64,000 nt of DNA from Trypanosoma brucei (GCA_000002445.1 AE017150.2:64001-128000), one strand, 5' to 3'. Shown: positions 1 to 58,679, counted from the stretch's first letter. Numbers and translations: made by a program. Notes: generated by a model from the sequence alone, not told the origin.

Positions 1-1925
1 AAAATAATTAATTTCCTGCATCATTCTTTCTAAACCATATATAATATGGAAACAAAAAATATTACTGCCTCATATACATGCATCAACACTACGTATATAT
101 AATCAATATTTAAAGAGAGTCAAATTCTATCAATTAAAATCAAGTAAAACAATAAGCAGAAAAAAATTTAAGGATATTAATGAAGCGAAGAAAAAGAGTA
201 TCGGTACAACACATAGATACACACACACACAACTAAACAACTGTTCCACTGGAGTTTCTTCCCTTTCTGTCAATACGTAACATTCACTTGCATTGAATAA
301 ACTCATTGAAAATATAAATCACTTATCCCCTCCCCCGTGTATTCGCTTACTTCCAAAGGAGAATATTAAATAATGTCTGTAGGACAGGTAAAAAAAAACT
401 GATAGTCTTTTTGCATCAGATAACCAGAGAGTATTTCTGTTTACTTTCATAATAAACAAAAACATTCTTTTACCTTCAGTTAAAATAAAATTTAATTACC
501 TGCCTCATTAGTTGTTCACAACTGTCAACAACTAATTCAGCCCCAGAAATTCACATGTATCTGATGTGCCATCGTTGTTTGATTCATTCAGATGTCTTCC
601 ATGATGGTGATTGCACAACATATGGAAAATAATTGGAATGAAATTAACACAATTAATTGAGGAAACCGTAAAAGATTATCATAACACATTTTAAAATTTC
701 CCTCCCTTCATTTACACAGATTAAATATGTAATGATACAATTCCCTTTCAGTACGTGTCCTCACTTATTGTATCATCATTGTAAGTTTCCTACTGCTCAT
801 ATACGCGAAGCTATTGGAATAACAAAAATAATGAAACGACACATTTAAATAACTTGAAAAAATATATAACAAATAAAGGTAATAAAGAGAATGTGTGAAC
901 AGACAGATAATAAAATGAAACACGTTTCGCACTTTCCTTATAAATATTCAATAGTTGGTATGTTACAAATAAAAACAATTATATAATATAGAAAGGAAGG
1001 AATATAATTACATTATACACCTGCATGTGGATATGTAACAGTGAGTCATAGTAGAAATAAATTGCCTAAACACAATAGTTATGAAAGATAAAATAATTCA
1101 AAATATCAATAATATTATTCTATCAACATTCCCTTCCTTCTCCATTAAGTTTCCAATGGTTTCAAATAATAATTCACATAATCTCATACATATGTTACGA
1201 TGGGTATTGCATGCAGTACAATTGAAAGAAAGTGTAACTCATATAACATTTTCAAAAAAAAAGGCATTGAATGGTTGTTTGCTACCATCAATTACATTTC
1301 CAATGCCTAATTACACTTTTATATGCATGAAGGAAGTTACAGATGATAACTTTGACATGCTCGAGAATTCATAACACAAAGCGACTGCTGCATGCGATAA
1401 AAAATAAAAATATAAATAACATCCGAATTAATTTACTGACAGATGAGTGCAATTCATTCACCCAAACTTCATAGCTGCAAACATAAACTCGCTGCTGCCA
1501 ATAGGAAATAATCCCGCATAAATATTGAGTATCTGAAAATGATAGCAACGGGTTTCCATTTTTGAAATATATACATAAAATACATGAGGTATATGAAGTC
1601 ATATTGGTAAAGTGTCACTACGCATGTTGCAATTTACTATCAAAAGTGTATGCCTTATTTTATTTCTTGTGTTACTGTAACTCATGAGTATCATTCATTA
1701 TTCTTTACAATACAACTGTAAGTCATTTTGCATTTTTACATATTTCCTTATTCTCTCATGCTGGAAGTATTCCACATATAAGATTCCTCAATATCGTTCA
1801 CAAAATAAAAATAATTTCATTTACTTCTGCATTCAGTTTCTTGTGCAGCAGTGTGCACTAATCATTCATAAAGTTTTTAATTTGCCAAATACATCATTAC
1901 GAAACTATTTTCATACACACACATA
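1..1925. repeat. AT-rich RHS upstream spacer module, copy 1. It is the 5'-flank of an RHS gene lying left of the window. The same ~1.9 kb sequence recurs at 5371-7300, 36840-38760 and 47525-49450, with partial copies at 16285-17040 and 26020-26770.
   Basis: Direct sequence identity visible between the blocks. For example, 'aaaataattaatttcctgcatcattctttctaaaccatatataatatggaaacaaaaaatattactgcc' occurs at 1, 5371 and 47532. The spacer ORFs 1684..2082 and 7064..7252 have identical N-termini. Confidence 0.8.
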
Positions 1926-2765
1926 CACAAACACAAACAACCAAACATTTTTAAATGTTGCTGTGAAACGGAAATTGAATCACGGAAAATTGTGTGGCGC
2001 ACACGTAATGGGCACCATGAATGCCTCTTTGAATATTCCTCAATGGCTTTTCACCAGCATCATCAACTTACTTTTTGTGTAAAAAAATAATAGAAACAAG
2101 ACAGAACAGAAAAAAGAAATAAAGGTACAAATGCATTAATAAACCCAACTCCTCAGCAGGAAATCAAGAACAGGAAGCCACGAAAAGCGTATGGCACATA
2201 TGATTTTCACCTCTCAGTTACTTAAGGTGGATCGCATGATTTACCCACCTTCTAAGAACACACCCTCCGAGAGGCCCGATTAAAAGAAAAAAAAACGCTA
2301 TGACGGTTGAAAAGACGTTTTTCATAAACCTTCACTTTATACGTGAGGATGCATGAATAAACAATGATAACGATGAGAATGCTAACGGAAACAATGACGA
2401 ACCGTGAGGATCCTAGAAAAAAAAATAAAATAAAATCATCACGTACCTTCGCAGTAGGGAAACTTAATAAATAACAAAATATAAATATTCCCTACACAGA
2501 GGTATAGGGAGTGTTCGTCAACTTCGTAATGCTAATCAAAAAGCCTTCAAATGTATCGATCATTCGTGTAGTCAATCAAATAAGAAGTAACATGTACTAC
2601 ACGCACAAAAGCACACTTATAAAGCCTACAAACCCACTTGCCCCCTTTTAGAGAATACCACTCTCTAGTCAGTGATAGGAGAGGTGATATTAAAAGTATT
2701 CCCTTTATAATTATTTCTGACTCCTCAATTCGTTGCAACATAACATAACATGCAAAGATGTTGCA
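1926..2765. repeat. Type-A RHS 3'-flank module. It has a second copy at 26771-27627 and replaces the spacer continuation found in other units.
   Basis: The sequence diverges from the other spacer copies right after 'ttttcatacaca'. The block 'caaacaaccaaacatttttaaatgttgctgtgaaacggaaattgaatcacgg...' is shared only with 26771-27627. It contains a 7-bp inverted repeat, aaggtgg...ccacctt, at 2222-2250. Confidence 0.7.
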
Positions 2766-5222
2766 TCAGGCAGCGGGGCCACCAGCAATAGCGTTTGGTT
2801 CATCCTGGGTGATCTCCTTAACAATATTCCCTTCCATCTTCACTTGAAACTGGTTGATTTTATTCCACAACTCTGTAGTATGATCGCCTCTGCCCCCAAC
2901 TGGTTCGCACTTCTGCCTCTCCTCGATTGGCTTGCTGTCACTGTACTGTATGTAAATCAGCTCCCATTTCAAGTTTCTTGCGAGCTTATCCCATTCACCA
3001 AACAATTGTTTCATTGCCTTGATAAACTTATCTACCTTCTCTCGTGTCGTGTGATGCGTTGGTGCCACTGTCGCCTGGAGCAGAACAATTGTTGTTGTAA
3101 TGATCGCTCTTCCTTCTCTATCAACAGCTGGCTCAGTTACAAAGAAAAAGGCGTCCACAACGGGGAAATTTCCCTGTACAGGTCGGTAGAAGCACCCAAC
3201 CTCAATGTCTTGGCCTGTCGTTTCGGGGTTAAACTGACGAAGTGAAGTTGGAACACGTCCCACGGCATTACCACTTGCCAGAACGGATACATTTGAATCC
3301 ATTTCTTCTCCAACGCGAGGGAGATACCGCAGGTGCGTCACAATCGTCTGCACAACATTTCCCATCGTGAAGGCATATACGCCCACATTTTCAAATTCAT
3401 CAGCGGCCCGCTCTTCTTTCCCACGAAAAACCTTTCGAAGGTAATTGTCTCGCATACATGCTGTGTTCGCCCACACTCTCAATTTCTGCTCAATATCAAT
3501 GGAAACAGCTCTGTTTCTGCATTCTTCTCCATTCTCAGTTACAACCCGGACCAACTTAGCTAACATGTAAGTAGTCCCGTCCTGGCGCCATTGAACTCGA
3601 CTATTCAGCACCTTCATGTAGTGACTATCATCGCCTCTACTGATTTCTGCCAGTGCCTCATTTATTTCTCTAACGCGGCCCTTGTAGCGTTTTTCACCTT
3701 CCAGTACTTGGCGGGCCAGTGGGCCCACCTTCTTAATCCATCCCAATGTTTTCTGCCATTCATTCTCAAGGTTTATGATGTGAGCTTCGGTGATTTTACT
3801 TTCCTCCAACTTCGACAGCCGCCTCCACGCAACCGCAGCCTTCAGTTCCACCTCTTCATAGCAATTGATGCAAAGGAACTCGCAACCCCGTGGTTCCTTC
3901 CAGTCTTTGTAGTTATTTGGATCTGGAGATGTCAACACAATTACGGGCCACGCTCCCGGCAAGTCTGCGGGTATGGGTTGGTGCCTGTCTTTCCAAAAGT
4001 CGTATATAATGTAACCAAGAACTTTTTCAACAACGAAGGCCTCAACAGCATCCAATCCATCTTTTTCTTTTTCATAGAATACAACCTTTCCCGGATGATC
4101 GTTTGTCGCCCTGAAGAAAATATATGCCCTACCCTTCACAAAATAAGCGATATTCCGCAACAGCTCCGAATCGTAATGCAGCAACCTTTGAAGCAGAAAC
4201 GAGCCAACACCAAATGATTTCCCAATACCTGGAGTGCCAACGAGGACGCAAGGAATCTGTTTTTTATTCACGCCTGGCCCTAACCACAAATCCAGCCTGT
4301 GCTTCACGAGATACCACACTCTCATTACCTCTCGACGAATGTACACATCCCCGTCAAACACGTAGTCTCCTGGTTCTTCCGCTTCCTCTTGAATTGCATG
4401 TTCCGGAGTGCTGAAAGAGTTATACGGCCAACCCTCCTGCGAGGTGAGCACAGCAATCTCTAAATTACCGTGACGAGGCAGTGGGTCGCACAAGTCATAA
4501 GGCGTGTGACTGACATTCACCTCCTCTTCTGTCCACAACTCGGGCTCGCCGTCACTATTACCCACCACCTTCATGCCAAGAGGTAAATCATTGTGACCCG
4601 ACTCCACATAACCCCATGTCGCATTGTATATGGATTCATATACTCCTTTCAGTTCGACACCATCAGCTGTTTGGTGAGCTCTTTTCCTTGCTTCTTTGGC
4701 AATGCGCAGTGCACTGTCCAACTTTGTCGCTGCCACGGGACCAACAAATTCCCTTATTTGCGCTGTTGCATTTTCTTCCCATTGGTGAATGTCTTCAATC
4801 CTATTACGAGGCAGATAAATAACTGCCCTCAGTAATTGAAACTCATCAAGCCGCTGTATCCTTCCTAGAAACTTGGCATTCACAATATAATCCTCCGGGC
4901 TCTGAACAAAGACACCCACTGACACATTAGAAGTGCCGAGGGTTTCACCGAAGTGATGATTCAAAAGGTCATGCAATTTCATATCCCTCAAACCCGCAAA
5001 GCGTTGAAGCAATACATCTTCAATAGAACTATTCATCGTCCATGTTGGTCCCTCTTCATCCCCGCGCAGTCTCTTGAGAAAACGCCTTGCCGCATGTAAG
5101 CCATCAGTATAGAAACGCCGCATTGAATTCCACATTGCTAATGCCCTATTGTCTCGTTGTCTAGCAACTGCAAAATTAAAGTAACGTATGAGGAAAATAA
5201 TAGTGTGTGAACAGTGTAACAT
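2766..5222 (-). CDS. RHS: Retrotransposon hot spot (RHS) protein, type-A C-terminus. The 5' end is divergent: the ORF reads through what is 5'-UTR sequence in the paralogs.
   Basis: 818-aa ORF. It has the P-loop 'VLVGTPGIGKSFGVGSFLL' and conserved RHS blocks (KGVYESIYNATWGYVESG, HVYIRREVMRVWY, VVDAFFFV, HPTTREKV). The annotated ATG lies inside the 'gtgtaacataat' motif, which is upstream non-coding in paralogs at 36672 and 47375. The true start is therefore probably a downstream Met. Confidence 0.85.
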   Translation of the reverse strand: MLHCSHTIIFLIRYFNFAVARQRDNRALAMWNSMRRFYTDGLHAARRFLKRLRGDEEGPTWTMNSSIEDVLLQRFAGLRDMKLHDLLNHHFGETLGTSNVSVGVFVQSPEDYIVNAKFLGRIQRLDEFQLLRAVIYLPRNRIEDIHQWEENATAQIREFVGPVAATKLDSALRIAKEARKRAHQTADGVELKGVYESIYNATWGYVESGHNDLPLGMKVVGNSDGEPELWTEEEVNVSHTPYDLCDPLPRHGNLEIAVLTSQEGWPYNSFSTPEHAIQEEAEEPGDYVFDGDVYIRREVMRVWYLVKHRLDLWLGPGVNKKQIPCVLVGTPGIGKSFGVGSFLLQRLLHYDSELLRNIAYFVKGRAYIFFRATNDHPGKVVFYEKEKDGLDAVEAFVVEKVLGYIIYDFWKDRHQPIPADLPGAWPVIVLTSPDPNNYKDWKEPRGCEFLCINCYEEVELKAAVAWRRLSKLEESKITEAHIINLENEWQKTLGWIKKVGPLARQVLEGEKRYKGRVREINEALAEISRGDDSHYMKVLNSRVQWRQDGTTYMLAKLVRVVTENGEECRNRAVSIDIEQKLRVWANTACMRDNYLRKVFRGKEERAADEFENVGVYAFTMGNVVQTIVTHLRYLPRVGEEMDSNVSVLASGNAVGRVPTSLRQFNPETTGQDIEVGCFYRPVQGNFPVVDAFFFVTEPAVDREGRAIITTTIVLLQATVAPTHHTTREKVDKFIKAMKQLFGEWDKLARNLKWELIYIQYSDSKPIEERQKCEPVGGRGDHTTELWNKINQFQVKMEGNIVKEITQDEPNAIAGGPAA

Positions 5223-8200
5223 AATATCAAATGTAATAGAGCAAGATAATGTTTATTCACTATAGTTTGTATAATATGATATCATAATGTATTTGGTATT
5301 GAGAGGAACAATTTCAAAATATAGCAGCTGTAAATAAATATTTCCCTTGCTTCATCATCATGTTCTAAAAATAATTAATTTCCTGCATCATTCTTTCTAA
5401 ACCATATATAATATGGAAACAAAAAATATTACTGCCTCATATACATGCATCAACACTACGTATATATAATCAATATTTAAAGAGAGTCAAATTCTATCAA
5501 TTAAAATCAAGTAAAACAAAAAACAAAAAAATTTATGGATATTAATGAAGCGAAGAAAAAGAGTATCGGCACAACACATAGATATATACACACATGAATA
5601 CACACCACACAATTGCTTCTTTATACATCCTCCCCATTTTTACAATTCATAATATTCACTTGCATTGAATAAACTCATTGAAAATATAAATCACCTATCC
5701 CCTCCCCCGTGTATTCACTTACTTCCAAAGGAGAATATTAAATAATGTCTGTAGGACAGGTAAAAAAAAAAAACTGATAGTCTTTTTGCATCAGATAACC
5801 AGAGAGTATTTCTGTTTACTTTCATAATAAACAAAAACATTCTTTCACCTTCAGTTAAAATAAAATTGATTTACTTGCCTCCTTACTGTTCACAACCATC
5901 AACAACTAATTCAGCCCCACATATTCACATGTATTTTATGTGCCATCGTTGTTTGATTCATTCACACATCTTCCATGATGGTGATGATACAACATATGAA
6001 AAATTATTGAAATACAATTAATACAATTATTTGAGGAACCCATGAAAGACTATCATAACATATCTTTTATTTTCCCTCCTTTCATTTACAAAAATTAAAT
6101 ATGTAATGAGACAATTCCCTTTCAGTACGTGTCCACACTTATTGTATCATCATTGTAAGTTTCCTATTGCTCACATACACAGAGCTATTGGAACAACAAA
6201 AACATAAAACAACACATCTAAACAACTTGATAAAATATATAATAAATAAATAAAGGTAATAAAGAGAATGAGCGTGAACAGACAGATAATAAAATGAAAC
6301 ACGTCTCGTACTTTCCTTATAAATATTCAATAGTTGGCGGATTACAAATAAAAACAATTACACATTATAGAAAGGAAAGGATATAATTACATTATACACC
6401 TGCATGTGGATATGTAACAGTGAGTCATAGTAGAAATAAATTGTCTAAACACAATAGTTATGGAAGATAAAATAATTCAAAATATCAATAATATTATTCT
6501 ATCAACATTCCCTTCCTTCTCCATTAAGTTTTCAATGGATTTAAATAATAATTCACATAATCCCATACATATGTTATGACGGGTATTGCATGCAGTACAA
6601 TTTAAAGGAAGTGAAACTCATATAACATTTTCAAAAAAAAAAGGCATTGAATGGTTGTTTGCTACCATCAATTACATTTCCAATGCCTAATTACACTTTT
6701 GTATGCATGAAGGAAGTTACTGATGATAACTTTGACATGCTCGAGAATCCATAACACAAAGCGACTGCTGCATGCAATAAAAAATAAAAATATAAATAAC
6801 ATCCGAATTCATTTACTGACAGATGAGTGCAATTCATTCATCCAAACTTCATAGCTGTAAACATAAACTCGTTGCTGCCAATAGGAAATAATCCCGCATA
6901 AATATTGAGTATCTGAAAATGATAGCAACGGGTTTCCATTTTTGAAATATATACATAAAATACATGAGGTATATGAAGTCATATTGGTAAAGTGTCACTA
7001 CGCATGTTGCAATTTACTATCAAAAGTGTATGCCTTATTTTATTTCTTGTGTTACTGTAACTCATGAGTATTATTCATTATTCTTTACAATACAACTGTA
7101 AGTCATTTTGCATTTTTACATATTTCCTTATTCTCTCATGCTGGAAGTATTCCACATATGAGATTCCTCAATATCGTTCACAAATAAAAATAATTTTATT
7201 TACTTCTGCATTCAGTTTCTTGTGCAGCAGTGTGTGTACTAATCATCCATAAAGTTTTTAATTTGCCAAATACATCATTACGAAACTATTTTCATACACA
7301 TGCACAAACAAACCGTTGGGACAATATCTTTGAGGAATTTCCTTCACTATATTTGCAGTTCAGTAGTAATTAAAATACACTTTTTGTATAATTCAACACA
7401 TGGTGGAATTGCAAAGAAATGTGATGGTACTTATAATCAATAAGTTCCCAATTTTCCTCACATGGTCTCTTTTCATGCCTTTCCACACATATATAATTCA
7501 CAGAGAATTACTGCAATATCCTTCATATGCTTTCAGGATTCCATATGTCACAATACAAATAATATACATTTACACATATATATAATTTGGACAGCATATT
7601 GCTTAACATATAAATTATCACAAACCTATGATATTACACTCCTCCTAAGAATAATAGAATCAAATCATTTCTATTTTGCATCATTACATGAAGCTTTGGA
7701 AAAGAAAAAAAAAGAATCAAACAAAAGGTAATGTAAAGAACACAGTTTCATAATACAGATTATAACTTGTTTGTGAATTTCAGATGCAAACACAAAATGT
7801 TCAAACAGTAAAACAGTAAAGGATAGTACTGGTGATGTAAGCACAAATTAATCAAAAATAGAAACATAAATAAAATTGAAACTTATAAAAACACAAATAT
7901 ATATGATACAAATATTTACCACATATTATAATTCGCCACCCTCACACTTGAATTAGAAAGAGTACATAACACACATATGTGGTAAAACTAATACAACTCG
8001 AGTATACGTATGTGCCATCTTCATAACATAATCATTCTAATATTTACTCAGTATGTGTGTCTGTGTGTGTGTCTGTGTGTGTAGAAATGATGAAATGTAA
8101 TTGTAACAAATCAGGCACAACACAAACAAAATATATGAATTATATTATTCTCTAAAAAGTAGAAGAATAAAAATCAAGAAATATTACGCAGCTTTTCTCA

Positions 8201-10100
8201 CAAGTAATTTTGTTTCTGTATATATATATATACATATATAACACGACAGCTGACAACATTAAACTCTCAATTCCATAATATCTGACACCTGAAGTGATAA
8301 TTAGCAGCGGATGCCTTTAACAAAAAACAACAGAAATAACAACATCAAAGCATGTTTTGAAAGCTTAAATAAACTTCCTCATGGATAAACCATTTGTACG
8401 AAGTTTGAGTGCCAAGTTGGAGGAACAAAGAAAAAATAAAAAAAGAAGAATTAAATGGTAAAACAATTGCGTGTGATATAACTAAAGGATTTGTTAGGCA
8501 CTACACTCATTAAACTCCAGTTTCATAAAAATACTGCAAGGCATAATATTTACTGCTTTACCGGTTATGTGCCTCCAGCAAGCAATAATAAATACTTCGA
8601 GTATTATTCAATTTCTGATGCTATGAAGTGTGTAATAAATTAGTGCGGGAGCAAAATATTCAAATGTTGGTGTTCACTTCAAATTATAACCTCTGCACTA
8701 TGAATGTCTCTCGATGTTTATAATTTGAGAGAGCAAAAGTGACGGCGCTATTACTTATTTCTTCCAGTTCATGAATACATACACATATTTATACATATAT
8801 AATCAGAGGTGACACGCAAAAGCGTTTAAACATCAGGCATGAACATCTTTCCATTCAAAGTAAGACGATACAATAAGGTAAGTTTAGGATGAAGTGAAGG
8901 TATCATAATGTTAATATCTTCCTTCAAGCGGAGGATTCAATTCAAATAGGCGTACTTCACAAACAATAGTAAAATAACTGAGAAAACTTATATCACTTAA
9001 TCGTTATTTCCTTCAATTCTTATTTTGAATCGCTCTGTACCGTCACACCTTCAATAAAGTATATAGTGACGCATTTCATACATCCTCCCTAAGCCATCTC
9101 TCATAGTCATTAGCTCTCAACAGCAATAATAACAAATAATGAATAGTTTAGTTCTTACCTTCCCTTTTTTACTACCAACAAGAAAGATATACGAAATAAT
9201 TATCATACTGAATAAACAGTAGGCGTTCCTCATTATCCTACACAAAATATGAATTGAAACGATAATTTACTAACGGAGCGGAAGTGTCTGAAAGCGTCTT
9301 TAACTCGTCTCCTGTGCGGGGCGAAGAGGGTTGTGTTGTGTGGGCTTTCTAAAAATTTCACTCTCTTGCAGACAGCTGTGTAAATAAACGGGGAGTACAG
9401 GTGTGTTTAGAGAAAGATAACCGTACAAAATAATACTCTGCACTCCTATGACCAAAACAACCATTCGTAATGCAGGTTTTCAAAATACACGATATCATCT
9501 CAACAAATTGTAATTTTTTTTTGCATAATGTCCTCCAGAAGACAGAACAACAGATGACACAGTTAAATAACACATGACAAACAAGGAATATAACCGCACA
9601 TCCTCAGCAGTAAATGTTTCAGTTTCTCCTTTAAAAAAAAAAAAGAAAAATAAAACAGTTTCACACGTGTGGTCCAAAAGCTGCATCAGCCAATACAATA
9701 TCTTGACAGCTTGTCACGCAGTCTTGCCTCAAGAAGAAAATAAATCATTCATCTCTGCTTTCCTTAGTTGATAAATGAGATCCCATGCTGTGTTAACTCC
9801 CGTCTCCATTCAAAAAGTTGACTCAACGTTATGACGAGGCAGTGACCAAAAACAATCCAAATGCAATTCTAAATTTCTTCATATTACGTTTTCAGTTTTA
9901 TTACACATTTCCCCAACCATTCCAAGTACTAACAGGAATAATTTGGTTCTATAATAATGCATGTGTTTTCTACAGCTCTTTCATTTTGTTATGATCCGCA
10001 CAAAAATTATATATGTGGTTGTTGATTCGTCCTGTCAATCAAAGTAACAATCATAATAATTAATTTTCCCCTTTTCTTCATTTTTTCTATTAGCACATGT
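5223..10100. repeat. Full-length inter-RHS AT-rich spacer: type-C 5'-flank, upstream module and distal spacer module.
   Basis: Colinear with 36587-41560. Partially colinear with 15725-19840 and 47270-50230. Contains variable (TG)n/(TC)n at 8050-8090 and poly-A tracts. Confidence 0.75.
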
Positions 10101-10129
10101 GCACCTTGGTGAGATCACTTTCACTCATT

Positions 10130-12500
10130 TGCACTGATTGGTCAACACTATTTAGTTCGTTATTCAACACACTCCCTTACATGTCCTCCTCTCACCATTT
10201 ATAACCCACACGAGCAGCATCAAATATAAATTGTGAAGAGGTATGAGATCACAAGGAGCTCGCTCTCATTGAGAAGGTTGGATGCGTCATATATATATAA
10301 TCATGTAATCCCTTTCCATTTCAACAATACGCAAACCTCAACTGCGGAATCGACTTTGAATGAGTTGACCTCGTCAGCATGAAACGGGGCCCGCCAAGTG
10401 GCATGAACATTAATCTTATCAGTAAACATGTGTTTGAGGTGTTGGTAATAAATGGGGTCAAAGAAAACATAAGTGCGTATCATCTTCCCCGTTATGCCCG
10501 AGTGGAAAATATACATCATCTCCGTGAAGATAATTGTATCCATGTTGTATCAATTCCTCATCCAGCTCTTCATCCTTATCAGTACCCAAACGAAGTGCCA
10601 TCGCCTAACTTTTTCCGTGAATGCACTCACACCTTTGAGCTAACGAGTTCCAGCAACTTTGCAACTGTCATACGGCTCGGGAATCCATGAGAATTTATGA
10701 TCATATCTGTGCAAATGCCTTTACTCATTGAAGGGCATGTTAACACACCATCAGTCATGAGATCCACTACTCCCTCCAGCCAGCGCCGTGAGGAAAACTT
10801 ATTTCAGACCTCGGGACCGCGAACTTCTCTCGTAGTAACTTTAACTTTATTGTTCTACATCCATTGATATATCCGAGTCACTGGAAGGTGAGAGATGAAC
10901 ACATTTGGTCCACAACAGCAGGCTGAGGGTATTTATTATATTCAAGAAAATTAGGTCTTGGTTCCTTGAAAGGCACGGGAGTGTATTTGTTTACAAAAAT
11001 ATCAAACTGACAAACAGCCGCACCTTTACTACTGGCAATACCATCACTACTAAAGGCATTGTGTCTCGCAACATTCCAATCTGTTGGAAGAATTATATCA
11101 TACATACTCACCGTTGGGAAGTCTTTCCAGTTCCATCTCATGCTTACAAAAAACAACATAGCACCCATAGCCACAATTGAGCGAACTGCGGTTGTGTACA
11201 CCTTTGCGTCTTCAATATTGTAACCTCTATAGCTCATAATGCATACCATCGTATTAATTCCTGCACCTAATATTTCGTAGTTGCTTAGGTTCATAGCCTT
11301 CGTCCGGCAAAGGGACAGTTGAGAGTAAGCACTCAACATAAGTACTGTGTCCATTTCTAATGTACTGAATATACGCAATGGTTCCAACAGCTTGCTTGCC
11401 CATGGCTGACTGTAATGTGTTTCGTGCAAATTGATTGTGATGTGGAAAGGAAAATAATGCTAGCGACAACTCCAAGTGAGCCTCGTGTACTGCTCAATGT
11501 CTTTGTGGTGAACTGCTATAAGAGAGTCATTCGCTTCGTCATATAAGTCAATGAATTCCACAACAAGCCCTCAACTAAAATATCGTTAATCGATCACTTG
11601 CTTGAACTCAAGTTATCCAGATGTTAAGAAATTACAGCGTGTTTCCCATCGCAAACGAAAACATACAACCTCACGATCCTTCCGCCAACACAAACAATTT
11701 GAACACTCTTCTGACGGTCATTTATCGCAATTGAAACGTAAGGATGCAAGCGGCCTGTGTTCCTCAGGGTTCGTAATACATCCCGACACAAACGGCTCAT
11801 GTATCGATAAACGCACATCAGCACTTCATTGAGGAAAACTGTGTAGTATTTAAGAAATTCGTTAAGACTGATATAATCTATTTCCTCCACTCCAATATTG
11901 TACGCATCCGCGTGTAAACAAACAAATTATCCATGTCTAGTGTTACCTGACTAAGAATGGCAAAATTATTAACCAAACAGCAACAACTTTCACCCTCTGG
12001 GGTATCGCAAGGAGGGATATACACCATTCCCCATTGACTTGAATAGAGAAATAATGATCCGCACATGTGGGTCAATAGACGAGGCCATGGTCACTCCACT
12101 GCTGCCGTTACATATGATCACTGCATGGTTTTTATATCAATGTTGATGATGATGTGGGATTTGCTGCTGGAGGCAACCAACAACATAAGTTTAAGGTTGC
12201 CACGTGTGAAGAGAGGCCCAACTGCCAACCCTCAACCAGGATAACAGAAGTGATTATAAGGAAAGAGAAGACAACATATCATAGTATGTTTACCCACCGA
12301 CAAATAACTGAAGAAAGAGAGAGAGAGAGAAAGAGAGGAAAATAGAAACAATCACGTCACCAGCTGCGTGTCTGCGAAGAACACCATCAAGAGCTGCTCC
12401 ATAACTGCAACCATAACTAACATGTATAATATAATTATAACAGCTCGTATATGAAACAGCACATCCAGTAACTGCTTCTAATGTTTGCATATTTCACTCC
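10130..12500 (-). pseudogene. Truncated, frameshifted RPB2-family pseudogene (DNA-directed RNA polymerase second-largest subunit). It covers only the C-terminal ~40%. Copy 1 of 4.
   Basis: Minus-strand ORF fragments carry hallmark motifs of the RPB2 family, compared here with yeast Rpb2 as I recall it. 11878..12075: 'SQWGMVYIPPCDTPEGESCCCLVNNFAILSQVT' (cf. [30 protein letters not shown]). 11624..11890: 'DVLRTLRNTGRLHPYVSIAINDRQKSVQIVCVGGRIVRLYVFV' (cf. [43 protein letters not shown]). 11254..11475: '[22 protein letters not shown]' (cf. [22 protein letters not shown]). 10878..11429: 'SYRGYNIEDA' (cf. SGYNQEDS). 10301..10543: 'FFDPIYYQHLKHMFTDKINVHA' (cf. [22 protein letters not shown]). By-hand translation near 10170-10200 shows a C-terminal CCSC cysteine cluster. 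The pieces are colinear but sit in different frames. Confidence 0.65.
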
Positions 12501-36586: not shown

Positions 36587-39500
36587 AACTCTCTTAATAT
36601 TATTAACTTAACTTCCTTTCCTTTTCTTTTTTCTCTGAAATTATAAATAACTGAAGTAAAATAATAGATAAGGAAATAATAGTGTGTGAACAGTGTAACA
36701 CAATATCAAATGTGATAGAGCAAGATAATGTTTACTCACTATTGTTTGTATAATATGATATCATAATGCATTTGGTATTGAGAGGAACAATTTCAAAATA
36801 TAGCAGCTGTAAATAAATATTTCCCTTGCTTCATTATCATGTGCTAAATATAATGAACTTCATACATCATTTCTTTAACTATGAATAACATGCAGACAAA
36901 AAATATTACTGCCTCATATACCTGCATAAACACTTCGTATATATAATCAATATTTAAAGAGAGTCAAATTCTATCAATTAAAATCAAGTAAAACAATAAA
37001 CAATAAAAATATATATACGGATATTAATGAAGCGAAGAAAAAGAGTATCGGCACAACACATACATATACACACACATGAATACGCACTACACAATTATAT
37101 ATCCTCCCCATTTTTACAATACGTAACATTTACTTGCATTGAATAAACTCATTGAAAATATAAATCACTTATCCCCTCCCCCGTGTATTCACTTACTTCC
37201 AAAGGAGAATATTAAATAATGTCTGTAGGACAGGTAAAAAAGAAACTGATAGTCTTTTTGCATCAGATAACCAGAGAGTATTTCCGTTTACTTTCATAAT
37301 AAACAAAAACATCATTTTGCCTTCAGTTAAAATAAAATTGAATTACTTGCCTCCTCACTGTTCACAACTATCAACAACTAATTCAGCGACACAAATTCAC
37401 ATGTATTTTATGTGCCTTCGTTGTTTGATTCATTCACACACCTTTTATGATGGTGATTATACAACTTATTGTAAAAAATTGGAATAAAATTAACACAATT
37501 ATTTGAGGAAACCGTAAAAGATTATCATAACATATCTTTTATTTTCCCTCCTTTCATTTACACAGATTAAATATGTAATGATACAATTCCCTTTCAGTAC
37601 GTGTCCACACTTATTGTATCATCATTGTAAGTTTCCTATTGCTCACATACACAAAGTTATTGGAATAACAAAAAATGAAACAACACATCTAAACAACTTG
37701 AAACAATATATAATAAATAAATAAAGGTAATAGAGAGAATGAGCGTGAACAGACAGATAATAAAATGAAACACGTCTCGCATTTTCCTTATAAATATTCA
37801 ATAGTTGGCGGATTACAAAACAATTACACATTATAGAAAGGAAGGGATATAATTACATTATACACCTGCATGTGGATATGTAACAGTGAGTCATAGTAGA
37901 AATAAATTGCCTAAACACAATAGTTATGGAAGATAACATAATTCAAAACATCAATAATATTATTCTATCAACATTCCCTTCCTTCTCCATTAAGTTTCCA
38001 AATGGTTTCAAATAATAATTCACATAATTCCATACATATGTTATGACGGGCATTGCATGCAGTACAATTTAAAGGAAGTGTAACTCATATAACATTTTCA
38101 AAAAAAGGTATTGAATGGTTGTTTGCTACCATCAATTACATTTCCAATGCCTAATTACACTTTTATATGCATGAAGGAAGTTACTGATCATAACTTTGAC
38201 ATACTCGAGAATTCATAACACAAAGCAGCAGCTGCATGCAATAAAAAATAAAAATATAAATAACATCCGAATTCATTTACTGACAGATGAGTGCAATTCA
38301 TTCACCCAAACTTCATAGCTGTAAACATAAACTCGATGCTGCCAATAGGAAAAAATCCCGCATAAATATTGAGTATCTGAAAATGATAGCAACGGGTTTC
38401 CATTTTTGAAATATATGCATAAAATACATGAGGTATATGAAGCCATATTGGTAAAGTGTCACTACGCATGTTGCAATTTACTATCAAAAGTGTCTGCCTT
38501 ATTTTATTTCTTGTGTTAATGTAACTCATGAGTATTATTCATTATTCTTTACAATACAACTGTAAGTCATTTTGCATTTTTTTATATTTTCTTATTCCCT
38601 CATGCTGGAAGTGTTCCACATATGAGATTCCTCAATATCGTTCACACAATAAAAATAATTTCATTTCCTTCTGCATTCAGTTTCTTGTGTAGCAGTGTGT
38701 ACACTAATCATCCATAAAGTTTTTAATTTGCCAAATACATCATTACGAAACTATTTTCCACAAATAAACAAACAAATCATTGGGACAATATCTTTGAGAT
38801 ATTTCCTTCACTATATTTACAGTTCAGTAGTAATTAAAATACACTTTTTGTATAATTCAACACATGGTGGAATTGCAAAGAAATGTGATGGTACTTATAA
38901 TCAATAAGTTCCCAATTTTCCTCACATGGTCTCCTTTCATGCCTTTACATCCATATATAATTCACAGAGAATTACTGCAATTTCTTTCATATGCTTTCAG
39001 GATTCCATATGTCACAATACAAATTATATATATTTACAAATTTGGACATAATATTGCTTAACATATAAATTATCACAAACCTATGATATTACACTCCTCC
39101 TAAGAATAAGAATCAAATTATTTCTATTTTGCATCATTACATGAAGCTTTGGAAAAGGAAAAAAAAGAATCAAACAAAAGGTAATGTAAAGAACACAGTT
39201 TTTTAATACAGGTTAAAACTTGTTTGTGAGTGTCAGATGCGAACACAAAATGTTCAAACAGGAAAACAGTAAAGGACGGTACTGATAATGTAAGCACAAA
39301 TTAACCAAAAATAGAAACATAAATAAAATTTAAAACTTATAAAAACACAAATATATATGATACAAATATTTACCACATATTATAATTCGCCACCCTCACA
39401 CTTGAAATACAAAGAGGACATAACACACATATGTGGTAAAACTAATACAACTCGAATATACATATGTGACATCTTCTTAACATAATCATTCTAATATTTA

Positions 39501-41560
39501 CTCAGTATGTGTGTATGTCTGTGTATCTGTGTGTGTAGAAATGATGAAATGTAATTGTAACAAATCAGGCACAACACAAACAAAAAATATGAATTATATT
39601 ATTCTCTAAAAAGTAGAAGAATAAAAATCAAGAAATATTACGCAACTTTTCTCACAAGTAATTTTGTTTCTGTATATATATATATACATAACACGACAGC
39701 TGACAACATTAAACTCTCAATTCCATAATATCTGACACCTGAAGTGATAATTAGCAGCGGATGCCTCTATCAAAAAACAACAGAAATAACAACATCAAAG
39801 CATGTTTTGAAAGCTTAAATAAACTTCCTCATGGATAAACCATTTGTACAAAGTTTGAGTGCCAAGTAGGAGGAACAAAGAAAAATAAAAAAAGAAGAAT
39901 TAAATGGTAAAAGAATTGCGTGTGATATAACTAAAGGATTTGTTAGGCACTACACTCATTTAACTCCAGTTTCATAAAAATACTGCAAGGCATAATATTT
40001 ACTGCTTTACCGGTTATGTGCCTCCAGCAAGCAATAATAAATACTTCGAGTATTATTCAATTTCTGATGCTATGAAGTGTGTAATAAATTAGTGCGGGAG
40101 TAAAATATTCAAATGTTGGTGTTCAATTCAGATTATAAACTCTGCACTATGAATGTCTCTCGATGTTTATAATTTGAGAGAGCAAAAGTGACGGCGCTAC
40201 TATTTATTTCTTCCAGTTCATGAATACATACACATATATAAATATATTTATACATATATAATCAGATGTGACACGCAAAAGCGTTTAAACATCAGGCATG
40301 AACATCTTTCCATCCATTTAAAGTAAGACTATACAATAAGGTAAGTTTAGGATGAAGTGAAGGTATCATAATGTTAATATCTTCCTTCAAGCGGAGGATT
40401 CAATTCAAATAGGCGTACTTCACAAACAATAGTAAAATAACTGAGAAAACTTATATCACTTAATCGTTATTTCCTTCAATTCTTATTTTGAATCGCTCTG
40501 TACCGTCACACCTTCAATAAAGTATATAGTGACACATTTCACACATCCTCCCTAAGCCATCTCTCATAGTCATTAGCTCTCAACAGCAATAATAACAAAT
40601 AATGAATAGTTTAGTTCTTACCTTCCCTTTTTTACTACCGACAAGAAAGATATACGAAATAATTATCATACTGAATAAACAGTAGGCGTTCCTCATTATC
40701 CTACACAAAATATGAATTGAAACGATAATTTAGTAACGAAGCGGAAGTGTCTGAAAGCGTCTTTAACTCATCTCCTGTGCGGGGCGAAGAGGGTTGTGTT
40801 GTGTGGACTTTCTAAAAATTTCACTCCCTTGCAGACAGCTGCGTAAATAAACGGGGAGTACAGGTGTGTTTATAAAAAGATAACCGTACAAAATAATACT
40901 CTGCACTCCTAAGTCCAAAACAACCATTCGTAATGCAGGCTTTCAAAATACACGACATCATCTCAACAAATTGTAATTTTTTTTTGTATAATGTCCTCCA
41001 GAAGACGGAACAACAGATGACACAGTTAAATAACACATGACAAACAAGGAATATAACCGCACATCCTCAGCAGTAAATGTTTCAGTTTCTCCTTTAAAAA
41101 AAAAAAAAAAGAAAAATAAAACAGTTTCACACGTGTGGTCCAAAAGCTGCATCAGCCAATACAATATCTTGACAGCTTGTCACGCAGTATTGCCTCAAGA
41201 AGAAAATAAAACATTCATCTCTGCTTTCCGTTAATTGATAAATGAGATCCCATGCTGTGTTAACTCCCGTCTCCATTCAAATAGTTGACTCAACGTTATG
41301 ACGAGGCAGTGACCAAAAACAATCCAAATGCAATTCTAAATTTCTTCATATTACGTTTTCAGTTTTATTACACATTTCCCCAACCATTCCGAGTACTAAC
41401 AGGAATAATTTGGTTCTATAATAATGCATGTGTTTTCTACAACCCTTTCATTTTGTTATGATCCGCACAAAAATTATATATGTGGTTGTTGATTCGTCCT
41501 GTCAATCAAAGTAATATAATAATTAATTTTCCCCTTTTCTTCATTTTTTCTATTAGCACA
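36587..41560. repeat. Full-length inter-RHS AT-rich spacer (type-C 5'-flank, upstream module, distal spacer module).
   Basis: Colinear with 5223-10100. Confidence 0.75.
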
Positions 41561-43890
41561 TGTGCACCTTGGTGAGATCACTTTCACTCATTTGCACTGA
41601 TTGGTCAACACTATTTAGTTCGTTATTCAACACACTCCCTTACATGTCCTCTTCTCACCATTTATAACCCACACGAGCAGCATCAAATATAAATTGTGAA
41701 GAGGTATGAGATCACAAGGAGCTCGCTCTCATTGAGAAGGTTGGATGCGTCATATATATATAATCATGTAATCCCTTTCCATTTCAACAATACGCAAACC
41801 TCAACTGCGGAATCGACTTTGAATGAGTTGACCTCGTCAGCATGAAACGGGGCCCGCCAAGTGGCATGAACATTAATCTTATCAGTAAACATGTGTTTGA
41901 GGTGTTGGTAATAAATGGGGTCAAATAAAACATAAGTGCGTATCATCTCCCCCGTTATGCCCGAGTGGAAAATATACATCATCTCCTTGAATATAATTGT
42001 ATCCATGTTGTATCAATTCCTCATTCAGCTCTTCATCCTTATCGGTACCCAAAGGCATTGCCATCGCCTAACTTTTCCGTGAATGCACTCACGCCTTTAA
42101 GCTAACGAGTTCCAGCAACTTTCCATCTGTCATACGGCTCGGGAATCCATGAGAATTTATGATCATATCTGTGCAAATGCCTTTACTCATTGAAGGGCAT
42201 GTTAACACACCATCAGTGATGAGATCCACTACTCCCTCCAGCCCGTGCCGTGAGGAAAACTTATTTCAGACCTCGGGACCGCGAACTTCTCTCGTAGCAA
42301 CTTTAACTTTATTGTTATACATTCATCGATATATCCGAGTCACTGGAAGGTGAGAGATGACCACATTTGGTTCACAACAGCAGGCTGAGGGTATTTATTA
42401 TATTCAAGAAAATTAGGTCTTGGTTTCATGGAAGGCACGGGAGTGTATTTGTTTACAAAAATATCAAACTGACAAACAGCCGCACCTTTACTACTGGCAA
42501 TACCATCACTACTAAAGGCATTGTGTCTCGCAACATTTCAATCTGTTGGAAGAATTATATCATACATACTCACCGTTGGGAAGTCTTTCCAGTTCCATCT
42601 CATGCTTACAAAAAACAACACGCCACCCATAGCCACAATTGAGCGAACTGCGGTTGTGTACACCTTTGAGTCTTCAATATTGTAACCTCTATAGCTCATA
42701 ATGCATACCATCGTATTAATTCCTGCGCCTAATATTTTGTAGTTGCTTAGGTTCATAGCCTTCGTCCAGCAAAGGGATCGTTGAGAGTAAGCACTCAACA
42801 TAAGTACTGTGCCCATTTCTAATGTACTGAATATACGCAATGGTTCCAACAGCTTGCTTGCCCATGGCTGACTGTAATGTGTTTCGTGCAAATTGATTGT
42901 GATGTGTAAAGGAGAATAATGCTAGCGGCAACTCCAAGTGAGTCTCGTGTACTGCTCAATGTCTCTATGGTGAACTGCTAAAAGACAGACATTCGCTTCG
43001 TCATATAAGTCAATGAATTCCACAACAAACCTTCAGCTAAAATATCGTTAATCGAGCACTTGCCTGAACTCAAGTTATCCAGGTGTTGAGAAATTACAGC
43101 GTGTTTCCCATCGCGAACAAAAACATACAACCTCACGATCCTTCTGCCAACACAAACAATTTGAACACTCTTCTGACGGTCATTTATCGCAATTGAAACG
43201 TAAGGATGCAAGCGGCCTGTGTTCCTCAGGGTTCGTAATACATCCCGACACAAACGGCTCATGTATCGATAAACGCACATCAGCACTTCATTGAGGAAAA
43301 CTGTGTAGTATTTAAGAAATTCGTTAAGGCTGATATAATCTATTTCCTCCACTCCAATATTGTACGCATCCGCATGTAAACAAATTATCCATGTCGAGTG
43401 TTACCTGACTAAGAATAGCAAAATTATTAACCAAACAGCAACAACTTTCACCCTCTGGGGTATCGCAAAGAGGGATATACACCATTCCCCATTGACTTGA
43501 ATAGAGACATAATGATCCGCACATGTGGGTCAATAGACGAGGCCATGGTCACTCCACTGCTGCCGTTACATATGATCACTGCATGATTTTCGTATCAATG
43601 TTGATGATGATGTGGGATTTGCTGCTGGAGGCAACCAACAACACAAGTTTAAGGTTCCCACGTGTGGAGAGAGGCCCAACTGCCAACCCTCAACCAGGAT
43701 AACAGAAGTGATTATAAGGAAAGAGAAGACAACATATCATAGCATGTTTGCACACCGACAAATAATTGAAGAAAGAAAGAGAGGGAGAGAGAGAGAGAGA
43801 GGAAAATGGACACAATCACGTCACCAGCTGCGTGTCTGCGAAGAACACCATCAAGAGCTACTCCATAACTCTAATCATAACTAACATGTA
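41560..43890 (-). pseudogene. RPB2-family C-terminal pseudogene fragment, copy 4.
   Basis: ORFs 41764..42006, 42538..42891, 42716..42937, 42978..43352 and 43324..43533 carry the same motif series. Confidence 0.6.
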
Positions 43891-44731
43891 TAATATAATT
43901 ATAACAGCTCGTATATAAAACAGCACATCCAGTAACTGCTTCTAATGTTTGCATATTTCACTCCGTCACAATCTCTCTCCCATGACACCTACTGGAAATA
44001 CAACTCAGAGGGGCTATATTTGAGGCATGTTTCCAATACGCTCTCTCCACCACGGATGGCAAAGAAGCAAAAAGTACTATTACATTTTTGTTCCTTTTAT
44101 CATTGGCCTATAGATCCCTATCTCTACACGGATGGAAAATTTAGACTGTATAAATGAAAAGAAGATGTGAAGAGTTAGTGTAGTATAATCCAATCCTATA
44201 GTTTGTAATAGCACAAATGAAAACAAAACGTCACAATGTTTTCTTACGTCCGTCGATAACATTATTTCTGTCTTTCTCTGTGCCCCTTAAGATTACGATG
44301 TGGCTTAACTCCAGTTACGCGGTAGCCGATAAAATACTACTTTTACTATTCCTTAGTCGTCTTCATTTCCACTTCCCTTCCCTCACCTCCGGCACTCAAG
44401 TGAATTACCACGTCCCTTTCCTGCACTAACCGCCGCATTCGACTGCTTGTTGAAAAGAATAAGATGATTACTACAGCCGCTATTTGCTGAATATTACTCC
44501 CTTGCAGCGCATCTTGTCATCCTAAGCATTAAGACAAAGCCACTTACCCTGTTTTGGCAGTTAGGACTGCTGGCCTCCCTATGATACGATAACTCAATTT
44601 TACATTAAATGAAAAAACGCCGACTAGCCCCACATTAGCACCGTACACTGTTGACTGCTTGCGTTCACCATAACATACCAGGCCGGATATTTTTACCCAG
44701 CTTCCACCACACCTAATGCTATGAAATCGTC

Positions 44732-47269: not shown

Positions 47270-50230
47270 AACTCTCTTAATATTATTAACTTAACTTCCT
47301 TTCCTTTTCTTTTTTCTCTGAAATTATAAAAAACTGAAGTAAAATAATAGATAAGAAAACAATAGCGGGTGAACAGTGTAACATAATATCAAATGTAATA
47401 AAGCGCGTTAATGTTTATTCACTATAGTTTGTATAATATGATATCATAATGTATTTGGTATTGAGGGGAACAATTTCAAAATATAGCAGCTGTAAATAAA
47501 TATTTCCCTTGCTTCATTATCATGTGCTAAATATAATTAATTTCCTGTATCATTTCTTTCTAAACCATATATAATATGGAAACAAAAAATATTACTGCCT
47601 CATATACCTGCGTAAACACTTCGTATATATAATCAATATTTAAAGAGAGTCAAATTCTATTAATTAAAATCAAGTAAAACAATAAACAATAAAAATATAT
47701 GGATATTAATGAAACGAAGAAATAGAGTATCGGCACAACACATAGATATACACACACACGAATACGCACTACACTACACAACTGTTCCACTGGAGTTTCC
47801 TCACTTCTGTCAATACGTAACATTCACTTGCATTGAATAAACTCATTGAAAATATAAATCACTTATCCCCTCCCCCGTGTATTCACTTACTTCCAAAGGA
47901 GAATATTAAATAATGTCTGTAGGACAGGTAAAAAAAAACTGATAGTCTTTTTGCATCAGATAACCAGAGAGTATTTCTGTTTACTTTCATAATAAATAAA
48001 AACATTCTTTCACCTTCAGTTAAAATAAAATTTAATTACTTGCCTCCTCATTGTTCACAACTATCAACAACTAATTCAGCGACACAAATTCACATGTATC
48101 TGATGTGCCATCGTTGTTGAATCCATTCACACACCTTTTATGATGGTGATTATACAACATATGGAAAATAATTGGAATAAAATTAATACAATTAATTGAG
48201 GAAACCGTAAAAGATTATCATAACATATCTTTTATTTTCCCTCCTTTCATTTACACAGATTAAATATGTAATGAGACAATTCCCTTTCAGTACGTGTCCA
48301 CACTTATTGTATCATCATTGTAAGTTTCCTATTGCTCACATACACAAAGTTATTGGAATAACAAAAACACAAAACAACACATCTAAAGAACTTGAAAATG
48401 TATAACAAATAAAGGTAATAAAGAGAATAAGCGTGAACTGACAGATAATAAAATGAAACACGTCTCGCATTTTCCTTCTAAATATTCAATAGTTGGCGGA
48501 TTACAAAACAATTACACATTATAGAAAGGAAGGAATATAATTACATTATACACCTGCATGTGGATATGTAACAGTGAGTCATAGTAGAGATGAATTGCCT
48601 AAACACGATAGTTATGGAAGATAACATAATTCAAAATATCAAAAATATTATTCTATCAAAATTCCCTTCCTTCTCCATTAAGTTTTCAAATGGTTTCAAA
48701 TAATAATTCACATAATTCCATACATATGTTATGATGGGTATTGCATGCAGTACAATTTAAAGGAAGTGCAACTCATATAACATTTTCAAAAATAGGTATT
48801 GAATAGTTGTTTGCTACCATCAATTACATTTCCAACGCCTGATTACACTTTTATATGCATGAAGGAAGTTACTGATGATAACTTTGACATGCTCGAGAAT
48901 CCATAACACAAAGCAGCAGCTGCATGCAATAAAAAATATAAATATAAATAACATCCGAATTTATTTACTGACAGATGAGTGCAATCCATTCATTCAAACT
49001 TCATAGCTGCAAATATAAACTCGCTGCTGCCAATAGGAAATAATCCCGCATAAATATTGAGTATCTGAAAATGATAGCAACGGGTTTCCATTATTGAAAT
49101 ATATACATAAACTACATGAGGTATATGAAGCCATATTGGTAAAGTGTCACTACGCATGTTGCAATTTACTATCAAAAGTGTCTGCCTTATTTTATTTCTT
49201 GTGTTACTGTAACTCATGAGTATCATTCATTATTCTTTACAATACAACTGTAAGTCATTTTGCATTTTTACATATTTCCTTATTCCCTCATACTGGAAGT
49301 ATTCCACATATGAGATTCCTCAATATCGTTCACAAAATAAAAATAATTTCATTTCCTTCTGCATTCAGTTTCTCGTGTAGCAGTGTGTACACTAATCATC
49401 CATAAAGTTTTTAATTTGCCAAATACATCATTAAGAAACTATTTTCATACACACACATACACAAACAAACAAATCATTGGGACAATATCTTTGAGGAATT
49501 TCCTTCACTATATTTGCAGTTCAGTAGTAATTAAAATACACTTTTCTGTATAATTCAACACATGGTGGAATTGCAAAGAAATGTGATGGTACTTATAATC
49601 CATAAGTTCCCAATTTTCCTCATACGGTCTCTTTTCATGCCTTTACATCCTTATATAATTCACAGAGAATTACTGCAATTTCTTTCATATGCTTTCAGGA
49701 TTCCATATGTCACAATACAAATTATATATATATATATATATATATCCTCTTACATAAGTTGCACATAATATTGCTTAACATATAAATTATCACAAACCTA
49801 TGACTTTACACTCCTCCTAAGAATAAGAATCAAATTATTTCTATTTTGCATCATTACATGAAGCTTTGGAAAAGGAAAAAAAAAGAATCAAACAAAAGGT
49901 AATGTAAAGAAAATAGTTTTTTAATACAGAATATAACTTGTTTGTGAATTTCAGATGCAAACACAAAATGTTCAAACAGTAAAACAGTAAAGGACGTTAC
50001 TGGTGATGTAAGCACAAATTAATCAAAAATAGAAACATAAATAAAATTGAAACTTATAAAAACACAAATATATATGACACAAATATTTACCACATATTAT
50101 AATTCGCCACCCTCACACTTGAATTACAAAGAGTACATAACACACATATGTGGTAAAACTAATACAACTCGAATATACATATGTGCCACCTTCTTAACAT
50201 AATCATTCTAATATTTACTCAGTGTGTGTG
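47270..50230. repeat. Terminal copy of the inter-RHS spacer (type-C 5'-flank, upstream module and start of the distal spacer module). It is truncated at the edge of the array.
   Basis: Colinear with 36587-39540. Homology stops at about 50230, where 'tatttactcagtgtgtgtgtgtgtag|tgatgatgatatgtaatcgacagtcc' has the break marked '|'. Confidence 0.7.
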
Positions 50231-56200: not shown

Positions 56201-56244
56201 ACAAGATAACTTTCTTGATGAATTTCATTCATGATCGCACGCGT
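50231..56244. other. ORF-poor, GC-richer, non-repetitive region lying between the leftward-transcribed RHS array and the rightward-oriented genes. The leading interpretation is a divergent strand-switch region that may include degenerate element debris.
   Basis: No ORF longer than 209 aa in any frame. No recognisable protein motifs in the longest ORFs (50630..51082, 51135..51764). The base composition differs clearly from the AT-rich spacers. Flanking gene orientation is minus to the left and plus to the right. Confidence 0.4.

Positions 56245-58599: not shown

Positions 58600-58679
<80 letters not shown>

Follow-up and report, generated by a model that had tools for sequence, protein, structure and literature searches.

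How do retrotransposon hot spot (RHS) genes that differ strongly at both ends come to lie in spacer DNA that is nearly the same from one repeat unit to the next, with flanks that follow the gene subtype and units of irregular length? The question is raised by a stretch of 64,000 nt from Trypanosoma brucei brucei TREU927 chromosome 2 (GCA_000002445.1 AE017150.2:64001-128000), in the following called the window, which holds the part of the chromosome's RHS (pseudo)gene cluster that lies nearest to the transcription start. The array comprises five intact RHS genes and one RHS pseudogene, all on the minus strand; all long open reading frames (ORFs) listed for the window within 2.7-47.3 kb lie on this strand. 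RHS proteins are abundant, essential and trypanosome-specific nuclear or cytoplasmic factors that have been tied to RNA polymerase II (Pol II) transcription, elongation and mRNA export (PMC6393297), and given these roles the origin of their diversity is of some interest. An earlier note on this DNA had ascribed the architecture of the array to repeated unequal crossing-over between paralogous modules, not to simple tandem duplication. The sequence comparisons described below strongly support recombination in the array. The mechanism, however, is mixed, dominated by gene conversion with additional non-homologous insertions and deletions, and mostly old.

Exchange among diverged genes in a common spacer

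The genes were grouped as type A (A1, 2766-5135), type B (B1, 13151-15724, and B2, 22881-25463) and type C (C1, 34073-36586, and C2, 44732-47269), while the pseudogene (27628-30083) combines parts of types B and A. Self-BLAST of the window, with kilobase-scale matches at 91-97% identity, delineated two shared spacer modules in copies that are ~95% identical, U (2.1 kb) and D (5.6 kb), of which D includes a polymerase pseudogene. Copies of these spacers differ by 3-7%; the N- and C-terminal coding segments, on the other hand, are only 30-60% identical between gene types, with the central P-loop region of types B and C at 80-96% identity. Coding segments so diverged, placed inside spacers so similar, require exchange, and the claim that the array as a whole is not the result of simple tandem duplication was borne out by this contrast and by the patches described next.

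Such patches were located by site-by-site 'painting' of the coding sequences. Positions 44930-45436 of C2 are 93-99% identical to B1, compared with 68-70% to C1. Conversely, B2 carries three C1-like patches of 58-111 nt (24745-24855, 24285-24342 and 23196-23255), the last of which is 100% identical to C1, and B-like patches are found in C1 at 35175-35480 and 34283-34342. For the C2 segment and the three B2 patches, the sequence on either side does not match the presumed donor, and patches flanked on both sides by unlike sequence point to gene conversion and not to crossing-over.

Two perfect tracts were identified by an exact-repeat search. The longer, of 981 bp, is shared by the third and fourth D copies (30810-31790 = 41445-42425) against a background divergence of ~4%; the shorter, of 351 bp, is shared by B2 and the pseudogene (25366-25716 = 29986-30336), covers 5' flank and the first 98 nt of coding sequence, and is set in a background that is ~19% divergent. 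By our own arithmetic the chance of perfect runs of these lengths is ~1e-14 or less, so that recent conversion between neighboring units is indicated. The identity of the 981 bp tract would be accounted for by gene conversion of very recent date or, alternatively, by consensus carry-over during repeat assembly.

The pseudogene itself is a hybrid. Its first ~520-560 nt, from 30083 to ~29567-29525 (alignment columns up to ~600-630), are of type B, beginning at 98-100% identity to B2, and the remainder is of type A, 97-99% identical to A1; the switch takes place within ~40 nt, between 29567 and 29525. What had been counted as a third type-B gene and a second type-A gene is thus one B/A chimeric pseudogene. 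Two lesions disable it, a frameshift past approximately codon 88 and a tryptophan codon changed to a stop codon. The flanks track the coding ends, a B 5' flank accompanying the B-type N-terminus and an A 3' flank the A-type (RHS2) C-terminus. Here, then, the in-register hybrid unit built from two parental types that is expected of unequal crossing-over was found. Within the switch zone, at 29547-29557, a few sites are unlike both parents and match the C-type genes, which hints at more than one exchange at the switch.

Modules, junctions and related loci

Read as it is transcribed, with coordinates decreasing, the array begins with a truncated D and U, followed by C2 with its specific 3' stretch, the fourth D copy (D4), U, C1 with its 3' stretch and a truncated D3. 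It continues with a truncated B 5' flank, the chimeric pseudogene, the A 3' flank, U' (the distal 0.77 kb of U), the B 5' flank, B2 and D2, and then with U', the B 5' flank, B1, D1, U, A1, the A 3' flank and a U cut by the window boundary. The ATG-to-ATG unit lengths are 10.59, 9.74, 4.62, 6.50 and 10.68 kb, and the range of about 4.6 to 10.7 kb given earlier was confirmed. Uniform, colinear units of ~10 kb would have told against the modular description; self-comparison shows a non-uniform array with module switches. The flank coordinates of the earlier note proved correct within ~25 nt by self-BLAST. The six upstream regions differ too much in structure for a global MAFFT alignment to be informative, and the junctions were resolved by junction-centered alignments.

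All modules are given in the orientation of the genes, on the minus strand. Complete U copies lie upstream of A1 (5174-7313), C1 (36587-38777) and C2 (47270-49473). The copy at 1-1940, which belongs to the upstream region of the next RHS gene beyond position 1, is clipped at the window start and is 91-93% identical to 5368-7313, 36847-38774 and 47530-49472. The D copies extend over 7314-12958 (D1, downstream of B1), 17058-22688 (D2, downstream of B2), 30477-33707 (D3, truncated, downstream of C1) and 38778-44422 (D4, downstream of C2), and a further truncated D at 49474-50258 marks the upstream end of the array, its homology ending ~25 nt past a (TG)n run. Between gene and D are subtype-specific 3' stretches, defined by junction comparison: 12959-13150 for B1, 33708-34072 (365 nt) for C1 and 44423-44731 (~310 nt) for C2.

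Types A and C have the entire U module in common, and their upstream regions part only over the final 40-85 nt in front of the ATG. Thus, 5174-12958 aligns with 36654-44422 at 95.1% identity, and only 36587-36653 is unlike the region upstream of A1. The separate 'short 5' flank' that had been assigned to type C (36587-36840 and 47270-47530) does not exist as a module of its own, as the A1 upstream region is homologous through to 5174 = 36654 = 47355; its outer edge at 36840 and 47530 arose because the reference copy, 1-1940, is clipped at position 1 of the window. The ~560 bp 5' flank of type B that meets the upstream module part-way was observed as described. It is present at 15725-16289 (565 bp), at 25464-26027 and, truncated to 397 bp, at 30084-30480, and it substitutes for the proximal 1.3 kb of U, leaving the U' segments at 16290-17057 and 26028-26798; the junctions at 16290 and 26028, equivalent to 6547, are abrupt. 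On the 3' side, the flank unique to type A occurs at 1941-2765 and 26799-27627, within a 93.7% alignment of 1168-4698 to 26028-29560, where it occupies the place of the 5.6 kb D module; this part of the earlier description holds, but the label 'RPB2' for the module it replaces does not, since the polymerase fragment in D is RPC2-like (see below). The switch between U|D (7313, 17057, 38777 and 49473) and U|A-3' (1936 and 26796) is located at a (CA)n/(CAAA)n microsatellite, beyond which the two alternatives share zero similarity. Apart from a sub-threshold Rpb2_3 match, no Pfam remnants were detected in the A 3' flank and the gene-proximal D, and no Rfam family matched in the window.

Two units depart from exchange by homology in different ways. 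In the 6.5 kb unit, D (at the equivalent of 9645) is fused straight to the B 5' flank (at the equivalent of 16118) over a GAAAAA/poly-A microhomology of 5-8 nt at 30477-30482; this fusion is a non-homologous deletion of ~3.3 kb, and it is the reason why the unit is short. Units B1 and B2, by comparison, are colinear over 10.5 kb (6547-17057 = 16290-26798, 93.9%) and represent a plain tandem duplication of 9.74 kb. The unit-length differences do not all stem from homologous misalignment: the junctions at 30477-30482, U|A-3' and U'|B-5' are of another kind. Retroposed cassettes derived from cDNA were considered as well and rejected, for the 3' boundaries lack poly(A), with no A-run at the junctions of the subtype-specific 3' stretches with D, and the B 5' flank reaches 565 bp upstream of the ATG, far past the likely splice site; the A/C 5' boundary is the only subtype boundary close to a polypyrimidine-AG motif.

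Related loci of T. b. gambiense DAL972 (FN554974, 1.083-1.106 Mb) and T. equiperdum (CM010673, 776-798 kb) were included for comparison. The gambiense locus is colinear with window positions 29060-16290 at 95.1% over 12.8 kb, comprising an A-type C-terminus, the A 3' flank, U', the B 5' flank, a B gene, D and U', and past U' come a complete U and a gene that starts with a C-type N-terminus. In T. equiperdum the order is B, D, U, RHS2, the A 3' flank and U, followed by a gene whose N-terminus is of type C. When these two loci are counted with the window, the A-type C-terminus is joined to the A 3' flank in four of four cases, the B N-terminus to the B 5' flank in four of four, and a B or C C-terminus to D in six of six. 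The co-segregation of flank and subtype proposed earlier is hence perfect in the window and holds outside it, with the reservation that it concerns few, non-independent paralogues.

As to age, the D copies of the window are 95.5-96.9% and the U' copies 93.3-97.1% identical, that is, star-like in their distances, and the gambiense and equiperdum spacer copies are no more distant than the window copies are from each other. Concerted evolution homogenizing the array was rejected for this reason, the window copies being no closer to one another than to copies at the other loci. T. brucei subspecies differ by ~1% genome-wide, and at ~95% identity the gambiense and equiperdum loci, whose unit order differs from that of the window, look paralogous. 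The shared junctions, together with the star-like spacer distances, indicate that most of the architecture is old, older than the duplication of these loci, and was inherited by segmental duplication instead of being reshuffled recently.

Several further features of these loci were recorded. In the T. equiperdum locus (positions 19583-21809) a B-like 5' flank (85%) precedes a shorter RHS type that begins with MNQNGGSVGD and lacks the DUF7578 region; the similarity stops ~8 nt into the coding sequence, and the shared codons are only the first three, MNQ. A B-like flank before a different RHS type implies that flank modules can re-pair with other gene bodies. In the FN554974 assembly the gambiense RHS block is placed internally on a 4.5 Mb chromosome, a placement that may reflect scaffolding, and adjoins a gene for a subtilisin-like protein (Peptidase_S8; positions 1-7830 of the locus, ~1.083 Mb), its first RHS copy being cut off at the equivalent of window position 29060. 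A T. equiperdum RHS gene located beside a VSG and an adenylate cyclase gene had no DNA in common with the window.

Weighing the mechanisms

The account that we consider quite probable starts from an ancestral unit of U, RHS gene and D, with the RPC2-like pseudogene as a hitch-hiker, which would have been amplified long ago and whose spacers have since diverged by ~3-7%. The gene would behave as a three-part cassette, made of a 5' end with its own flank, a shared central P-loop region, and a 3' end with its own flank. Polypyrimidine-AG motifs occur 50-110 nt upstream of every ATG, and on account of these motifs the immediate 5' flank would probably contain the trans-splice acceptor and the 5' untranslated region (UTR), with the immediate 3' flank probably representing the 3' UTR. 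If the flanks are indeed UTRs, flank and subtype co-segregate because the flanks belong to the exchanged ends of the cassette, and no separate phenomenon has to be invoked. The RHS paralogues would have exchanged sequence by homology, chiefly through gene conversion patches of 60 bp to 1 kb, and at least one in-register exchange at the first family-conserved block, the start of RHS_N, would have produced the B/A chimera. Superimposed on this would be non-homologous events, namely the tandem duplication of the B unit, the microhomology-mediated deletion of 3.3 kb, and a switch at the microsatellite through which the short RHS2 3' flank took the place of D.

Some points weigh against this account. 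Repeat assembly might in principle have generated the perfect tracts as consensus artefacts; the genes in view number only six and are non-independent; and the assignment of the flank modules to UTRs and splice sites derives from sequence motifs. Furthermore, the B/A chimera is explained equally well by crossing-over or by long-tract conversion, and the direction of change may have been the opposite one, with spacers homogenized around genes that are kept diverse by selection. The related gambiense and equiperdum loci look paralogous and would bear only indirectly on unit-number polymorphism.

The strongest competitor in the sense of the earlier note is repeated unequal crossing-over between misaligned paralogous modules as the source of the whole pattern, of unit lengths as well as module swaps. 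The shared U and D offer ample homology for misalignment, the hybrid pseudogene with its matching flanks is the classic product of such an event, and the B1/B2 duplication may be another. Most exchanges, however, are internal patches that leave the sequence on either side unchanged, the second shortest unit became short through a deletion at 5-8 nt of poly-A microhomology, and D and the A 3' flank have no homology across their switch; crossovers that were repeated and recent are also at odds with star-like spacers and with identical junctions at other loci. Homologous exchange and the B/A hybrid therefore stand from the original proposal, which was too narrow in view of the conversion patches, the B1/B2 duplication, the poly-A deletion and the microsatellite switch, and as an explanation of everything we regard it as unlikely. 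Simple tandem duplication with divergence in place, driven by diversifying selection and with flanks altered by local indels, draws on the plain B1/B2 duplicate and on the positive selection reported for RHS clusters (PMC2386149). It fails on the coding ends, which differ by 40-70% at the nucleotide level compared with ~5% in the adjacent spacers, so that it is effectively refuted; the patch boundaries and perfect tracts demand exchange, and the RHS2 and RHS4 subfamilies occur at other loci too, all of which makes this explanation highly improbable.

An assembly artefact, in which mis-joined or collapsed repeats mimic irregular units and hybrid junctions, has to be kept in mind for 10 kb repeats of ~95% identity, which are difficult to assemble, and the perfect tracts of 981 and 351 bp might be consensus carry-over. 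On the other hand, the independent gambiense and equiperdum assemblies are colinear across A3'|U'|B5'|B|D|U and B|D|U|A|A3'|U, so that independent confirmation extends to all junctions but that of the deletion at 30477-30482; copy differences of ~5% are separable in clone-based sequencing, and all five intact ORFs equal deposited proteins. Such an origin of the pattern is hardly credible. There is also a more far-reaching idea: exchange boundaries would be non-random and set by specific recombinogenic elements, namely the (CA)n/(CAAA)n microsatellite, the (TG)n run where the array ends and the conserved coding block with which RHS_N starts, with conversion that is ongoing and biased toward neighbors, and the array would constitute a standing cassette-shuffling system for functional RHS isoforms, similar to mosaic VSG assembly. 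New RHS isoforms would then be created by joining an N-terminus and its 5' UTR to a C-terminus and its 3' UTR, a prospect that we put forward as a speculation of rather low probability.

The preferred account, ancient amplification with cassette exchange mainly by conversion, agrees with what has been described for this family and for other arrays. The RHS family, its subfamilies, and the generation of chimeric (pseudo)genes by recombination in the 5' region go back to Bringaud 2002, as summarized in PMC7563717 and PMC6393297. Bernardo et al. 2020 reported mosaic RHS genes of T. cruzi with up to three foreign fragments, which they attributed to unequal mitotic crossing-over, ectopic recombination and gene conversion (PMC7563717). 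The family and the conclusion are the same, but the species is another one and RDP4 was applied there to coding sequences without flanks, while flanks and spacers are included here. Jackson 2007 found chimeric copies in 21 of 47 T. brucei tandem arrays and described partial, biased conversion between adjacent duplicates (PMC1855330). Conversion between neighbors is also what the D3/D4 and B2/pseudogene tracts of the window suggest; Jackson's arrays, however, included RHS only by way of RHS7 on chromosome 7 and typically consist of near-identical copies, whereas the window mixes subfamilies in a common spacer. Mosaic VSG formation from silent subtelomeric arrays is comparable in that segments pass between diverged paralogues and pseudogenes through homology-dependent conversion. 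The likeness is genetic and not one of family, as the RHS array has no expression-site mechanism, no 70-bp repeats and no antigenic role.

The locus itself is not new. El-Sayed et al. 2003 reportedly described an RHS cluster of ~250 kb at one end of chromosome II, interspersed with truncated RNA polymerase and ESAG4 pseudogenes. The window belongs to this same locus and contains both RNA polymerase and ESAG4-like pseudogenes, but none of its six genes carries ingi/RIME, and what inactivates its pseudogene is a frameshift together with a nonsense codon. RHS mosaicism and the chromosome 2 cluster are thus already published, and mosaicism is an ordinary property of the family; the nucleotide-level map of modules and junctions, those at the microsatellite and the microhomology included, and the assignment to RPC2 may be refinements beyond published accounts. 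The window offers a clean case, at the nucleotide level, of N-terminal, central and C-terminal RHS segments recombined with their flanks in a common spacer scaffold, and it refines the published conclusions on RHS chimeras and array conversion without changing them. For annotation, its value lies in one B/A chimeric pseudogene, the RPC2-like fragments, and flank modules that are probable UTRs.

Gene identities, the polymerase pseudogene and the sequence beyond the array

The five intact proteins, of 789-860 amino acids (aa), are exact matches to XP_951482 to XP_951486 of TREU927 chromosome 2 (a sequence of 1,193,948 bp) and contain the Pfam domains DUF7578, RHS_N and RHSP. In a Pfam scan of A1, B1, C1 and C2, all four matched RHSP (E 7e-138 to 6e-64), RHS_N and DUF7578 above the curated cut-offs, and the Walker A motif GTPGIGKS was found in all translations, that of the pseudogene included. 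No ingi/RIME element was found at the hot spot downstream of the P-loop codons, and the six reading frames run unbroken through the P-loop region. An ingi/RIME insertion is typical of many RHS pseudogenes and is no condition for membership in the family.

RHS subfamilies (RHS1-7) have a divergent C-terminal region, and by clustering A1 corresponds to RHS2 and C2 to RHS4. A1 (XP_951482, 789 aa) falls in a 90% cluster with GenBank 'RHS2a', and judging from the accession order it would be the third of the three RHS2 genes listed as Tb927.2.280/380/400 by Florini et al. (PMC6393297). Its frame is open for another 29 codons upstream of the annotated ATG (5136-5222), giving 818 aa as in the deposited 'RHS2a', compared with the 789 aa of RefSeq; the extension spans 5174, where homology to the type-C upstream region stops. 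For type B, represented by B1 (XP_951483, 857 aa) and B2 (XP_951484, 860 aa), the closest named relative is RHS4, with 54-59% identity. The type-C N-termini begin at 36586 and 47269. The C-terminal two-thirds of C1 (XP_951485, 837 aa) are 78% identical to a chromosome 1 RHS4, and C2 (XP_951486, 845 aa) is an intact RHS4 gene that clusters with CAD21774 'RHS4'.

The polymerase pseudogene of the D modules is present in four minus-strand copies (~10300-12050, 20039-21791, 31128-32877 and 41763-43507) that are ~96% identical to each other. Where DNA with stop codons was scanned against Pfam, X-masked translations were used. The fragment covers roughly domains 3/4 to 6, is spread over several reading frames, and matches Rpb2_4 and Rpb2_6, which are family-wide models, with Rpb2_3 weak and sub-threshold. 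Against the PDB, RPC2 scored 235 bits, RPB2 150 bits and RPA2 84 bits, and the best database matches were trypanosomatid RPC2 proteins at 50-53% identity. Its nearest relative is consequently RPC2, the subunit of RNA polymerase III, and the identity with RPB2 of Pol II that the label 'RPB2-fragment' implied was rejected, RPC2 outscoring RPB2 by 235 to 150 bits.

Beyond the array, the sign of the GC skew flips at ~50-52 kb, and coding passes from the minus strand of the RHS array to the plus strand. Trypanosome genes are transcribed polycistronically, and transcription of the array probably proceeds leftwards, starting from a divergent strand-switch region near 50-52 kb. No long ORFs with a Pfam match were found at 50.3-56 kb. 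On the plus strand, 56134-59192 holds a pseudogene of a receptor-type adenylate cyclase (ESAG4/GRESAG4-like) in at least three frames, with matches to Peripla_BP_A-cyclase_1, Peripla_BP_A-cyclase and Guanylate_cyc. The sole tandem repeat reported by Tandem Repeats Finder (TRF) in the window, a perfect (TG)38 at 58603-58678, lies within the region of this pseudogene. Further along the same strand, at 60625-61050, an intact ORF of 141 aa is a full-length match to Pfam DUF1181 (E 1e-77).

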